Below, one piece after another: positions 13,447 to 17,594 of a DNA stretch of 49,579 nucleotides. Within the stretch, counting starts at the first letter, position 1; each line of letters begins with the position of its first letter. The translations under genes and the position numbers were made by a program. Source of the stretch: Escherichia phage SRT8; sequence record MF996376, one strand, 5' to 3'. The notes below the pieces were generated by a model that was given only the letters and a program-made list of their open reading frames with translations, did not search any database and was not told where the DNA came from.

Positions 13447-16152
13447 TTAGCCTCCTGTTTTTTCCATAATGTAGGTGTAAGCTTTGCCACCTTGTGAAAA
13501 CGATTCGTTAATCATTTCGTTGCAGATCATACGAATGCCCTGCTCAAGCCCTTTTGGATCGTTGCCGTTATTCACATCGACTCGCATCCCGCTAACGTCG
13601 ATATAGTTCCCAGCGCCAGCGCCACCGCTTGAAAGCGTTAACCCTGCTCCGCGCGAAGCATTGCCAACTGAACCGCCGTTCGCATAACCGCGCATTAGTC
13701 GGTTTAGGTTGCCAACCCCGATCCGGCTTGTCGCCTCCTTCGTGAACACGAATTCACCGCCGTGAACTACGCCTTTCGGTTCGTACTTGCCGCCGTTCCC
13801 GGTATAACCGCCATTAGCAAACCCGCCCGCAAAACTCCACGTAGAGCCGCCCATCATACCAGAAATCGAATTGAAGATTACCATCTTAGTAATCATCTGG
13901 ATAATCTGGCTAATGATGCTCTTAGCGAAATCTGCGAAGTTCGCTTCACCGGTCATGAGGAATTCCGCCATCATATCAGACATTCCCGACAGCGCGTTCG
14001 AAGCAATGTTCCCTACATTATCATACATGTTAGTTGCTTCTTCGCCGTAGGTGGCAAATGCTGATTGCGCCCCAGCCAGCCAATCGCCGCGTTTTTCGTC
14101 TTCGGCTGCGTAGTATTTTTCTTGCGCTTCCTGCATACGCTTGAACGTGTCGTCCTCAAGACTTCCGCCCTTCGCTAACCAATCCGCTTGCATCTTCTGG
14201 CGTTCCGCTTCACGTTGTGCCGCAAGTGCGCCCATGCTTCGCGTATCGTTTAGCGTCTTCGTTGCCTGTTCCATTTGCAACACGAATTTAACGGAATCTT
14301 GATTCAACTGGTTTAGCCGTTCCTGCTGCGCAATCTGATCGCCTAGTTCGGCTTTCTGTTGTGCGCGGGCTAGTACCTGTTTCTGTTCCAGTAATAACGC
14401 TTGCTCCGCATTTGTTAACTTGCGTGTGGATTGCGCTTCCTCCAATACCTGAATCTGTCCTTCGACAGCCCATAGTGCTTTACGCTGTTGCGAAATGCGA
14501 TCGTTAATGCTGGCGTGTTTTTGCAGTGTCACTAACTGCGCCTGAAGCACGTAAAGCTCTTTGTCGAGTTGCTCGGTAGGTGCTCGCGTGATACCGCCAG
14601 AACCTTTCTTGCCGCCCTTCGTGCCTTTCTTCTTCTCCGCCTCCTTCGCCTGTTTCACTTCGTCTTCGCGAATCTTGATTAACTTTTGAGCGTTGGCGAT
14701 TGCTTCTTTATTGCCGGAAGCCGCGATCGCGTTGGCGTTCTTTCTCGCGTCGGCTAATGCCTTCTCAGCCCCGGCGACACGATCCGCCGCTAAATATTCT
14801 TTGTTAATCAAATCGACGGTTTTCGCTACATGCTTGTTACCTTCAATTCGCGCCGTGTTAACTTGCTGATTAAGCGTTTTAGCCTGTTCCAGCACTTTTA
14901 CAATCGGGTCAACTGCGCCGCCCAGCGCGACAGACTGTTTCCCTTCGTTCGCCCCGGTGTAATAGTTTTTCACCTCTTCCGCCGCATCGCTCCACGCGTC
15001 TTTGATTTCCAGAACCTTTAATCGGTGCTGTTCAATGTCAACGTTTAGCGCCGTGAAATCGCCCGATTTCTTGTACTGTTCGACACGCTGTCGCGCTTCG
15101 TCATAGCTGATCCCGACGTCTAACATTTTCTGTAACGACTCTTCCGCGCCGTCTTTCGTCGAAATGAAAGCTTTGATTACTTCGTCTGCTGATTGGTCGG
15201 CGGCTTTCGCGATCCCCATAATGTTCAAGGACAACCGATCAGCGTAATCGCCAGTAATCCCAAGTTGTGTATTGACTGCGGATTGAGTTTCCTTGATCTC
15301 GTTGCGGGTACTGACAACCTTATAAATCAGTGCTCCCAGCGCCCCAACCGTAACGCCCAATCCGACGTTAAGCGGATTCAGGAAAGACAACAGAACTTTG
15401 AACGTATTACCCAGCCCGCCGAAGCTGTCTTTAATCTGTCCGCCCTGCTGGATTGCTACCAACCAAACAGGCATACCGGAAGCAAGCGACGTTACAACGT
15501 CCGTAATCTGCGCCGGAAGCATTCGCATTGCTTGCGCATATTGCCCGGCAGAAACGCCAGCCAGTTTTAAACCCTTCGCCTGATTATTCAACTGCGCGAT
15601 AAATGGCGCGGCCTGTTCGCTTACGCCTAATTGCGCGGCCTTCAGTTCTAAAACTTCTTGCGCCGTCTTGCCAGCGAATAAGGCTTGCTGTTCTAAGCTC
15701 TTGATGAAGTTTTGCCCGGCCTTCGTTGCCACCTCCTTCTGGCGTGATGCTTCCGCCGCCGCTCGACCTTCAGCCGTTAACGCTTGCTGATTCTTGCGCA
15801 ATGCAACCTCTTGCGATTCCAGAACTTCGCCAAGCCGGAAGAATTCGTCGTCCGGTACGACGCCTTTTTTCCAAAGTGCGTCTAACTGCTTCGCCGTTTC
15901 GCGTAAGCGGTTCATGCTCTTGACTGTGGGATCGATAGCCGCTACAACGTTGGAGTATTCCTTCGCCTGTTTCGACAGTTCACGCGCGTGATCCTTTGCC
16001 TTCTGTTTCGCAACTTCCGTTTGATTTAGAAATTCATGGGTCGAGTCCGCCGCGCCGTCGTTCGCCTTCGCAAATTCACGAAGAGACTTTACAGCCCGAT
16101 CGACTTGCGATACGTCAACACCTAGCGACAATCCCGCGTATTGTTCCGCCAT
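13447..16152 (-). CDS. Tail tape measure protein
   Basis: 901 aa, long Ala/Gln/Glu/Lys-rich coiled-coil stretches, Gly-rich C-terminus; directly after the G/GT chaperone genes. Confidence 0.85.
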   Translation of the reverse strand: MAEQYAGLSLGVDVSQVDRAVKSLREFAKANDGAADSTHEFLNQTEVAKQKAKDHARELSKQAKEYSNVVAAIDPTVKSMNRLRETAKQLDALWKKGVVPDDEFFRLGEVLESQEVALRKNQQALTAEGRAAAEASRQKEVATKAGQNFIKSLEQQALFAGKTAQEVLELKAAQLGVSEQAAPFIAQLNNQAKGLKLAGVSAGQYAQAMRMLPAQITDVVTSLASGMPVWLVAIQQGGQIKDSFGGLGNTFKVLLSFLNPLNVGLGVTVGALGALIYKVVSTRNEIKETQSAVNTQLGITGDYADRLSLNIMGIAKAADQSADEVIKAFISTKDGAEESLQKMLDVGISYDEARQRVEQYKKSGDFTALNVDIEQHRLKVLEIKDAWSDAAEEVKNYYTGANEGKQSVALGGAVDPIVKVLEQAKTLNQQVNTARIEGNKHVAKTVDLINKEYLAADRVAGAEKALADARKNANAIAASGNKEAIANAQKLIKIREDEVKQAKEAEKKKGTKGGKKGSGGITRAPTEQLDKELYVLQAQLVTLQKHASINDRISQQRKALWAVEGQIQVLEEAQSTRKLTNAEQALLLEQKQVLARAQQKAELGDQIAQQERLNQLNQDSVKFVLQMEQATKTLNDTRSMGALAAQREAERQKMQADWLAKGGSLEDDTFKRMQEAQEKYYAAEDEKRGDWLAGAQSAFATYGEEATNMYDNVGNIASNALSGMSDMMAEFLMTGEANFADFAKSIISQIIQMITKMVIFNSISGMMGGSTWSFAGGFANGGYTGNGGKYEPKGVVHGGEFVFTKEATSRIGVGNLNRLMRGYANGGSVGNASRGAGLTLSSGGAGAGNYIDVSGMRVDVNNGNDPKGLEQGIRMICNEMINESFSQGGKAYTYIMEKTGG

Positions 16153-16171
16153 ATGTTATTACCTCCAGATA

Positions 16172-16198
16172 AAAGAAAAGCGCCCGAAGGCGCTTATT
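16172..16198 (-). terminator. Hairpin (AAGCGCC-TTCG-GGCGCTT) with T-rich tail after the T-frame ORF
   Basis: Inverted repeat read directly. Confidence 0.45.
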
Positions 16199-16520
16199 TG
16201 CTGTTATGGTGCATCATTTCTAATGCTTTCTGTTCCATAACACGAATATCGTTTAACACCTGCTCTTCATCGTCTATTTTATAGATTTTGAACAACATAG
16301 GCAAAACATTATAATCAAGACCGTAAGCCCCAGCGCCCGCGCTTCTCCACTGCGTACCCATCGCACAAAACACGTCATACGATTGGATCATATCTTCAGG
16401 GAAATAAAGTATTTCCGGTTCCTCGCCTTCGTAGTCAGAACGGGACAGGCCGACAGATCTTAACTCTTCATCTGTGGGCGGTTTCTGGTACATCAGATAA
16501 ACCGCCCGCTTTAGTTTTTT
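16194..16520 (-). CDS. T-frame extension of the tail assembly chaperone, expressed as a G-T fusion by -1 ribosomal frameshift
   Basis: Frame is continuous with G in the -1 frame from the slippery site to the stop at 16194. Confidence 0.7.
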   Translation of the reverse strand, partial: KKLKRAVYLMYQKPPTDEELRSVGLSRSDYEGEEPEILYFPEDMIQSYDVFCAMGTQWRSAGAGAYGLDYNVLPMLFKIYKIDDEEQVLNDIRVMEQKALEMMHHNSK

Positions 16521-16825
16521 ACGCGTTGCCCTGCCAGCGCTCGAAGGTAGGTTGACGTAAGAGCCAGCGCCGCGCCCGGATAGTAGCGGACAAGCATTTC
16601 GGCGTTTTCTTGATTAAACTCTTCTTCCAGATCCCAGCCGGAAGCCAATTCCATAATGAAATCGTGGTCTTTGATATCTTGTCGATCGTAAAGCTCCTGC
16701 ACTTCGTTAGACGGGCGATGCTTCACTTTGAAAGTGATTTTCGCTTCGTCGCCGTTCGGCATGATGAATTTTACGGGTAGTGCGAAGTCAGGCAGTGCTC
16801 CCAAAGTAATTTTGAATTTAGCCAT
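16511..16825 (-). CDS. Tail assembly chaperone (lambda gpG-like)
   Basis: 104 aa between major tail and tape measure genes; ends in slippery site. Confidence 0.75.
   Translation of the reverse strand: MAKFKITLGALPDFALPVKFIMPNGDEAKITFKVKHRPSNEVQELYDRQDIKDHDFIMELASGWDLEEEFNQENAEMLVRYYPGAALALTSTYLRALAGQRVKN
16514..16520 (-). other. -1 programmed frameshift slippery heptamer A-AAA-AAC at the end of the G chaperone gene, with stem-loop at 16476-16507
   Basis: Heptamer in the zero frame spans codons AAA AAC before the TAA stop; 9-bp stem GGGCGGTTT/AAACCGCCC starts a few nt downstream. Confidence 0.75.
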
Positions 16826-16847
16826 TGTTGATTCTCCTGATAGGTAA

Positions 16848-16870
16848 TAGCACGAATTGCTAAAACAGCG
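16848..16870 (-). promoter_or_regulatory. Palindromic element (aatagcacgaattgctaaaaca) just upstream of the G chaperone RBS
   Basis: Consensus match; follows the hairpin at 16906-16930. Confidence 0.45.
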
Positions 16871-16905
16871 TCGAGCCGATTTGATACGATGATTCTACAG
16901 AAAAG

Positions 16906-16930
16906 AAAAAGGGGAAGCAAGCTTCCCCGG
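16906..16930 (-). terminator. Intrinsic terminator after the major tail protein gene (GGGGAAGC-TTGC-TTCCCC plus T-run)
   Basis: Hairpin and T-run on the minus strand. Confidence 0.6.
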
Positions 16931-16937
16931 AGTGATG

Positions 16938-17594
16938 TTATTCGGATGCAAGGTAAGTAAATTTACCTTTCAGGGAAACGGACAAGGAAACAGTTTCCAT
17001 CTCGTTTACCTGCGTTTGTGGGATATCGTTAAACGACAGAACCCCAGCCCAAAGGCGCATTTCTTTAGCCTTCGGAACGAACATTCGAAGCGGCGTTACT
17101 TCGCCGGATTCGTCCAGACCGCGAAGGATCGGGTAAATCGCGTTATCAAATTCGTGCGCGAAGCTGTAAGTAAGCGACACGGCAGATTTGAAGGTCGGTA
17201 ACTGCTGTTCCTGATCGTCAGAAAGGCACTGGTAAGTGTAATACTGCTGCTCGCCGCCGTCCTGCCCGATATCCTGTACGCAAGGGATCTCAGTCCATGC
17301 GGTAACAGGTCGGAACGAAGCCGGGTTAGTACCTGTTGGGAATACGTTCGCGTTGGTAGTGTCGATACCCTCAAGCGTTACGCTTACATCTTCGGATACA
17401 GCCTTAACACGAAGGACGCGATCCAGAAGACGCCCCCACGCGGCGGAAGTAACTAACACATATTGACCGACAGTTACGCCGGAAGTTGACGCAACAGAGA
17501 AGACCGGATCGGCAGCGTTTGAAACGTTGGTTGCCTCGATCTCAGCGCCCAGCGTGGAACCGATAAAAATTTGTGAACCATTAGGAAGGTGCAT
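16938..17594 (-). CDS. Major tail protein
   Basis: 218 aa, strong AAGGAG RBS, followed by a terminator, immediately upstream of the G/GT chaperone pair. Confidence 0.7.
   Translation of the reverse strand: MHLPNGSQIFIGSTLGAEIEATNVSNAADPVFSVASTSGVTVGQYVLVTSAAWGRLLDRVLRVKAVSEDVSVTLEGIDTTNANVFPTGTNPASFRPVTAWTEIPCVQDIGQDGGEQQYYTYQCLSDDQEQQLPTFKSAVSLTYSFAHEFDNAIYPILRGLDESGEVTPLRMFVPKAKEMRLWAGVLSFNDIPQTQVNEMETVSLSVSLKGKFTYLASE

Follow-up and report, generated by a model that had tools for sequence, protein, structure and literature searches.

A -1 programmed frameshift signal predicted in the tail assembly chaperone gene of the T1-like Escherichia phage SRT8

Introduction

In the tail gene cluster of Escherichia phage SRT8 (sequence record MF996376), two overlapping open reading frames (ORFs), G and T, raise the question of whether they are expressed as separate proteins or whether some of the ribosomes translating G pass into the frame of T. 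The window analyzed here is the complete genome of this T1-like phage, 49,579 bp in length (Drexlerviridae, Tunavirinae, Sertoctavirus). A sequence-only reading of the window had proposed that a slippery heptamer abuts the stop codon of G, that a stem-loop follows it, and that the -1 frame runs into T, in line with the conserved G/GT strategy of long-tailed phages, by which the ratio of two tail chaperones is fixed. The evidence described below makes it very likely that this T1-like siphophage carries, in its tail assembly chaperone gene, a signal for -1 programmed ribosomal frameshifting; from sequence comparison, we infer that slippage occurs, how efficient it is, and that the hairpin stimulates it. 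A frameshift is already known for this phage family, and the present locus is one more instance of G/GT and nothing new in kind. The core elements are as follows.

16825..16511, minus strand: G, tail assembly (tape measure) chaperone, the 0-frame product; 104-aa ORF; Pfam PF08748 Phage_TAC_4
16520..16514, minus strand: slippery heptamer A_AAA_AAC (AAAAAAC), in frame, with AAA in the P site and AAC in the A site
16513..16511, minus strand: 0-frame stop TAA, immediately 3' of the heptamer
16514..16194, minus strand: -1-frame extension, "T"; 106 codons plus stop, consisting of LKRAVYL and then a 99-aa DUF1799 segment
16493..16194, minus strand: ATG-started ORF (MYQKPPTDEEL...) called separately as T; 99 aa; Pfam PF08809 DUF1799, E 1.8e-16

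The slip site at the end of G

Read on the minus strand, G closes with ...CAA CGC GTA AAA AAC TAA, so that the in-frame A-AAA-AAC lies directly before the stop; the coordinates that the sequence-only reading had given are exact. The T ORF is in the -1 frame of G (the offset is 332 nt, or 2 mod 3), and the ORF listing confirms that this frame continues through MYQKPPTDEEL... to 16194, as had also been proposed. In the 100 nt that precede the G stop, the -1 frame is open as well, and A_AAA_AAC is the only in-frame XXXYYYZ heptamer within this 100-nt two-frame overlap. By our own arithmetic, some in-frame slippery heptamer would occur by chance in a 33-codon overlap with a probability of about 0.13, and AAAAAAC is not enriched in the genome as a whole (13 observed versus 21.8 expected). 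The presence of the heptamer alone is therefore unremarkable, and its significance comes from its conservation among relatives.

Conservation of the slip site among relatives

The comparison set consists of 95 related loci from GenBank phages and IMG/VR. A scan of the IMG/VR viral contigs with the single G protein found the window only, as contig IMGVR_UViG_2974594196_000001, whereas an alignment query found 78 loci. AAAAAAC followed directly by a stop codon is present in 83 of the 95 loci (TAA in 79, TGA in two, and TAG in two); the rest comprise eight loci with a one-codon variant and four with a run of five A. The loci with the heptamer span the subfamilies of Drexlerviridae, Dhillonvirus, one Aeromonas phage, and divergent uncultivated contigs. 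Throughout these 83 loci, the Lys codon is always AAA and the Asn codon always AAC, and the codon ahead of the heptamer is GTA, GCA, GAA, ACA, TCA, or CTA, which encode six amino acids (V/A/E/T/S/L) with an invariable A as the third base. In a codon-aligned profile of 74 distinct G-T sequences, synonymous diversity across G-T reaches its minimum (0.23 versus a mean of 0.48) in the windows centered on the heptamer and the stop. In Dhillonvirus, where the slip site is a run of seven A, and in the Aeromonas phage pAEv1818, a -1-frame TGA directly precedes the heptamer (cgTGAAAAAAACTAA). In these phages, the heptamer is thus the entire overlap of the two frames and the sole place where the frame can be changed.

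Two groups lack an XXXYYYZ heptamer. The Rogunavirus type (loci L009 and L043-L047) has GCA AAG GTC TAA, and Webervirus (L015 and L016) has GCA AAA GTT TAA; both keep the -1-frame peptide LKRAVYL or LRRAVYL. These lineages must shift at a single codon, A_AAG or A_AAA_G, which is separated from the stop by one codon. Locus L042 has a Rogunavirus-like T peptide, yet AAAAAAC is present in it. In addition, four of the 95 loci, all of them IMG/VR contigs (L063, L085, L088, and L089), have five A instead of six (GTAAAAACTAA). This variant carries G into the third frame, from which T is reachable only via a +1 or -2 shift; the four loci are most likely homopolymer sequencing errors rather than real variants.

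Translation of the -1 frame ahead of the T ATG

Whether T has a start of its own can be judged from the codons between the G stop and the window ATG, which encode L-K-R-A-V-Y-L in the -1 frame. Among 45 distinct junction sequences of the Drexlerviridae type, the amino acid is kept at the R, A, V, Y, and L codons in 44, 44, 44, 38, and 45 sequences, respectively, by means of 4, 4, 4, 2, and 5 synonymous codons. LKRAVYL is thus kept via synonymous changes in a region where the G frame has already ended, which indicates purifying selection on a translated frame. The window ATG itself is found in only 3 of these 45 relatives (it is restricted to the clade of the window, IME347, and LF82-19); elsewhere, the position is occupied by TAT, CAG, TTT, TTA, TAC, and other codons, T1 reads CTG TTA TAT here, and no substitute start codon was seen at this position in any of the 45. 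Likewise, no Shine-Dalgarno sequence was found in the 15 nt upstream of the T ATG (GGGCGGTTTATCTG), a stretch that lies partly inside the hairpin stem described below. The ATG (16491-16493, minus strand) sits in the single-stranded loop of that hairpin.

These data bear on the alternative that G and T are independent genes, with T started at its own ATG (16493) and no fusion made. Consistent with it, a 99-aa ORF does start at this ATG (with the N-terminal peptide MYQKPPTDEELR), the position of the ATG in the single-stranded loop might allow a trace of free T protein, and the closest GenBank records list two coding sequences (CDSs). However, such a gene would lack a Shine-Dalgarno sequence, its start codon would be absent and unreplaced in nearly all relatives, and the alternative does not account for codons ahead of the ATG that are kept as amino acids and so are translated, or for a heptamer that is kept whatever amino acid precedes it. 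This alternative is therefore considered very improbable. Because the ATG is scarcely conserved and the -1-frame peptide ahead of it is conserved, T is probably made as a fusion and does not have a start of its own; the separately called T ORF appears to be an accident of an incidental ATG inside a longer -1-frame extension. Fused G-T proteins are already represented in databases, since a single profile of 213 positions, phrog_17368, covers both parts (positions 1-107 match G and positions 117-213 match T).

The predicted G-T fusion and the mode of slippage

In the favored scheme, most ribosomes starting from the G ATG (16825) would terminate at the TAA (16513..16511) and give the 104-aa G. 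A minority would slip back by one nucleotide on A_AAA_AAC, with tRNA-Lys re-pairing from AAA to AAA and tRNA-Asn from AAC to AAA; the shifted ribosomes would then read CUA AAG CGG GCG... in the -1 frame and end at 16194. The product would be a 210-aa G-T fusion of all 104 G residues and 106 -1-frame residues. Under simultaneous slippage of both tRNAs, Asn would be incorporated and CUA would be the next codon, so that the predicted junction is ...Q-R-V-K-N-L-K-R-A-V-Y-L, i.e., ...RVKN-LKRAVYLMYQKPP.... The peptide KKLKRAVYL, which the sequence-only reading had given for the -1 frame, is correct as a conceptual translation, but it is not the junction expected from tandem slippage, VKN-LKRAVYL; a VKK-LKR junction would be true only if the slip preceded Asn decoding or happened in transcription. 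As to function, a division of labor between the two parts is suggested by analogy with gpG and gpGT of lambda: the tape measure protein would be coated by G, both free and as part of G-T, the tube protein would be brought in by the T part, and neither G nor G-T would remain in the virion.

The same VKN-LKR product would arise from a "shifty stop," in which peptidyl-tRNA-Asn alone slides from AAC to AAA while TAA occupies the A site, and CUA is then decoded. The adjacency of stop and heptamer in 83 of 83 heptamer-bearing loci, whatever the identity of the stop, speaks for this mode, as does the use of a one-codon site (A_AAG or A_AAA_G) near the stop that is imposed on the lineages without a heptamer; slow-to-decode A-site codons, including stops, promote slippage according to PMC5009743. 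On the other hand, the full heptamer is kept including its first A (all six codons that precede it end in A), which is relevant only if the Lys tRNA re-pairs and thus argues for two-tRNA slippage. Moreover, the presumed slip codon of Rogunavirus and Webervirus is one codon away from the stop and does not adjoin it, and the fixed position of the stop may be no more than a consequence of the conserved G C-terminus together with the overlapping -1-frame Leu-Lys. We regard slippage of the Asn tRNA alone as improbable. It is also conceivable, though doubtful, that the stop codon contributes to the signal in its own right, through competition between termination and slippage, and that lineages tune the G:G-T ratio by swapping heptamer strength, stop, and hairpin. 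If this were true, the family would be a natural series for dissecting how the efficiency of bacterial -1 frameshifting is set.

The downstream hairpin

The 9-bp stem-loop that had been noted a few nucleotides downstream was borne out; it begins 6 nt after the heptamer.

16507..16476, minus strand: RNA hairpin with a 9-bp stem, GGGCGGUUU/AAACCGCCC, a 14-nt loop with 3-4 inner pairs, and a 6-nt spacer
16507..16499, minus strand: 5' arm of the hairpin, GGGCGGTTT
16498..16485, minus strand: hairpin loop, 14 nt
16484..16476, minus strand: 3' arm of the hairpin, AAACCGCCC

The spacer between heptamer and stem (TAAAGC) falls within the 5-9 nt expected of bacterial -1 signals stimulated by a stem-loop. 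RNAfold gives -19.6 kcal/mol; its minimum-energy structure contains 8 of the 9 stem pairs, along with 3-4 inner pairs (CUG/CAG). None of 200 dinucleotide shuffles was as good (z = -3.87). The arms of the stem also encode R-A-V and K-P-P, and the hairpin was therefore tested against coding constraint: among 5000 synonymous recodings of the -1-frame peptide, drawn from the codon usage of the phage, none reached -19.6 (mean -6.7, best -19.2). To build the stem, the sequence draws on CGG and CCC, rare codons that account for 10% of Arg and 5% of Pro, respectively.

In relatives tested sequence by sequence, z values of -3 to -5 were obtained for sequences of the Tunavirinae and Tempevirinae types, and the hairpin of Webervirus L015 is borderline (z -1.69, p 0.055). 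Locus L049 encodes the same peptide as hairpin-bearing sequences, yet it is without the stem. Dhillonvirus (GGCGGCG/CGCCGCC) and locus L096 have a non-homologous stem at the same distance from the heptamer, and LF82-19 has a diverged form of the same stem in its outer arm (GGGCA/TGCCC) along with a new inner stem (GTCGA/TCGAC). In a 48-sequence alignment, 76% of the cells were paired, versus 38-49% for slid controls, with few compensatory changes. We read the hairpin as real and under selection in the lineage of the window, and it is placed where a frameshift stimulator is expected. Counted from the first P-site nucleotide, its first pair would be about 13 nt away, at the point where mRNA enters the ribosome; in this position, the hairpin would oppose unwinding and make slippage more frequent.

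An H-type pseudoknot, in which AUCUG at the 5' side of the loop would pair with CAGAU just after the stem, was considered and rejected by inference, a 1-nt connecting loop across a 9-bp stem being sterically implausible; RNAfold puts CAGAU in a weak second hairpin. An Rfam scan of 16150..16950 at a permissive threshold gave no relevant family (the best hit, to an unrelated family, scored 17.9 bits versus a gathering threshold of 58.7).

The site and its hairpin also bear on slippage by RNA polymerase, which could add one A to the A6 run in a fraction of the mRNAs and so place G-T in one frame, with the junction ...VKK-LKR. The run is there (and is seven long in Dhillonvirus), one inserted A yields the same downstream frame, and transcriptional realignment is a recognized source of trans-frame products according to PMC5009743. 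Against this, A6 is short. For the Escherichia coli RNA polymerase to slip productively, a run of about 8-9 or more is generally necessary. Rogunavirus and Webervirus keep a conserved -1 frame with only three or four A, implying that the family-wide mechanism cannot depend on a long homopolymer. The codon register X_XXY_YYZ of the run is fixed in every lineage, and the selected structure lies downstream with the spacing of a ribosomal stimulator, while the hairpins of polymerase slippage lie upstream in the nascent RNA. Transcriptional slippage is accordingly judged extremely unlikely.

Several points nevertheless weigh against ribosomal frameshifting on the heptamer with a stimulatory hairpin. 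First, no protein, ribosome-profiling, or reporter data on a frameshift of the Phage_TAC_4 family were found in the literature, and the evidence is all comparative. Second, Rogunavirus and Webervirus do without the heptamer, and the canonical heptamer is therefore not obligatory. Third, no significant structure was found after the heptamer in Braunvirinae-type sequences (L012, L014, and L062-L068) or downstream in Rogunavirinae-type sequences (L009 and L042-L047), and the hairpin is missing in a few other lineages, including some Tempevirinae-like sequences that keep the heptamer. Fourth, covariation is weak: double changes of any kind are limited to 4 of 12 pairs, and the score is barely above that of the version slid by -1, so that the case for the hairpin rests on the synonymous-recoding null and on the independent stems in other clades. 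Finally, the ATG at 16493 leaves room for some independent initiation of T, and the two closest GenBank records, those of Citrobacter phage IME-JL8 and Escherichia phage BrunoManser, annotate G and T as separate genes. Because lineages that keep the heptamer go without the hairpin, it is not required for the system in general; it is likely a lineage-specific modulator or optional stimulator and not a fixed part of the signal. As a modest side value, the relatives provide a natural panel for the tuning of frameshift efficiency in enterobacterial phages, with heptamer plus hairpin, heptamer without hairpin, and one-codon sites.

Comparison with known systems

The conserved G/GT strategy that had been invoked for this locus is supported by gene order, protein families, reading frames, the heptamer, the comparative data, and the annotation of T1. 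In the T1 record (AY216660), CPTT1_038 and CPTT1_039 are a "tape measure chaperone" and a joined CDS, "tape measure chaperone, frameshift product." Phage T1 shares about 72% DNA identity with the window over 75% of the 901-nt G-T query, and the two G proteins are 61% identical. The signal is essentially the same in both: T1 has GCA AAA AAC TAA, an AAA spacer, and GGGCGGTTT...AAACCGCC; its -1-frame LKRAVYL is identical, and T is followed by a terminator. T1 differs in having TTA where the window has ATG and a stem of 8 pairs instead of 9, differences with no known functional meaning. The T1-like phages Stevie (PMC4319613) and U136B (PMC8104045) have both been described with a conserved frameshift, citing Xu et al. 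2004. The Rogunavirus and Webervirus pairs (AHP42, KLPN1, and Sweeny) resemble the window in their homologous G and T and in gene order, and joined frameshift-product CDSs are annotated in the Webervirus records KLPN1 and Sweeny. They differ in having a one-codon slip only; the hairpin is borderline in Webervirus, and none of significance was found in Rogunavirus.

As in the window, gpG/gpGT of lambda is encoded between the tube and tape measure genes; its 0-frame product is short, and a shift near the 3' end of G gives rise to a rare -1 fusion. The lambda slip site is G_GGA_AAG, and lambda is not known to require a downstream structure. The window differs in its A_AAA_AAC site, in the stop that abuts the heptamer, in the selected hairpin that follows, and in its protein families (Phage_TAC_4 and DUF1799); no match of its G or T to lambda-type families was found in the Pfam assignment. 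In lambda, the ratio of the two products is about 30:1, with binding of the tape measure assigned to G and recruitment of the tube protein to T, as PMC5009743 summarizes from Levin, Hendrix and Casjens 1993 and from Xu, Hendrix and Duda 2004, 2013, and 2014. The same source lists A_AAA_AAC as a recognized -1 shift site, used for the g-t shift of a haloarchaeal virus, and describes A_AAA_AAG as much shiftier than A_AAA_AAC in E. coli. The lesser shiftiness of A_AAA_AAC fits the low G-T ratio that is wanted. Two chaperone frameshifts of the HK97 type have been measured at 6-7% (PMC3711429).

The dnaX (tau/gamma) signal is similar to that of the window in its A-rich heptamer and its downstream stem-loop, and uses the same Lys tRNA (PMC5009743). 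Its heptamer is the much shiftier A_AAA_AAG (same source), whereas that of the window ends in C. A further distinction is that the shifted frame of dnaX ends almost at once, while that of the window adds 106 residues. The dnaX stem-loop begins about 6 nt after the heptamer; dnaX also has an upstream Shine-Dalgarno-like stimulator, and its efficiency is about 50%. A stimulator of this type was sought in the window and rejected: apart from a weak AGGG at a distance of 8 nt, there is no candidate upstream, and this AGGG lies inside a Gly codon that varies among relatives (GGG, GGA, GGC, and GGT). With a heptamer ending in C and only this variable-codon AGGG upstream, low efficiency is expected.

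The practical value of these results lies in annotation, since IME-JL8, BrunoManser, and many other T1-like records should carry the joined 210-aa product as T1 does. Annotation of G-T is uneven across the approximately 1000 phage records that have a G homolog, few of which carry the joined product. Some records give "hypothetical protein," some "tail length tape measure protein" (a PHROG-derived mislabel), and some two separate "tape measure chaperone" CDSs; in others, such as ityhuna, T is not called at all.

Genomic context

The G-T region is 99.9% identical to that of IME-JL8 and 99.2% identical to that of BrunoManser. All genes of the cluster are on the minus strand, in the order tube gene, G, T frame, and tape measure gene, so that the two overlapping ORFs are flanked as in the G/GT class. 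The neighboring features are as follows.

17594..16938, minus strand: major tail (tube) protein gene; 218-aa ORF; Pfam PF08813 Phage_tail_3, E 4.5e-61; directly upstream of G
16911..16928, minus strand: terminator-like hairpin and T-run between the tube gene and G, GGGGAAGCTTGCTTCCCC then TTTTTCTTTT; putative function
16834..16838, minus strand: Shine-Dalgarno AGGAG of G, 8 nt upstream of the G ATG; read from the sequence
16178..16195, minus strand: terminator-like hairpin and T-run between the T stop and the tape measure gene, AAGCGCCTTCGGGCGCTT then TTCTTTTATC
16152..13447, minus strand: tape measure protein gene; 901-aa ORF; Pfam PF06791 TMP_2 and PF09718 Tape_meas_lam_C; directly downstream of T

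The tube gene is annotated as a major tail protein in IME-JL8, BrunoManser, and T1. G matches PF08748 Phage_TAC_4 over its full length (E 9.9e-35; 119.9 bits versus a cut-off of 21.1), and its PHROG matches are phrog_569 and phrog_17368. The T1 record places a ribosome binding site, common to the short and the fused product, at the position equivalent to the AGGAG of G. A PDB sequence search with the 210-aa G-T fusion gave no match at E <= 1, so that there is no solved homolog to lean on.

Terminator-like GC hairpins with T-runs thus stand on both sides of the G-T unit, and it is curious that one of them lies directly ahead of the essential tape measure gene. The records of T1, AHP42, and Sweeny describe the element equivalent to 16178..16195 as a rho-independent terminator. 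Partial read-through of this terminator may set the stoichiometry of the tube protein, the chaperones, and the tape measure protein.

A second dip in synonymous diversity lies inside the T part, at G-T codons 179-183 (KIYKIDD; window 16270-16304, minus strand), where the value is 0.26 versus the mean of 0.48. The rare Ile codon ATA is used here in 49 of the 54 Ile-bearing sequences, and over about 33 nt, T1 (locus L003, 2138-2175) and the window do not differ (TTGCCTATGTTGTTCAAAATCTATAAAATAGA). The same strand has a promoter-like TTGCCT-17-TAAAAT that overlaps the stretch, and the dip could stem from an internal promoter or an RNA element or simply from codon bias.

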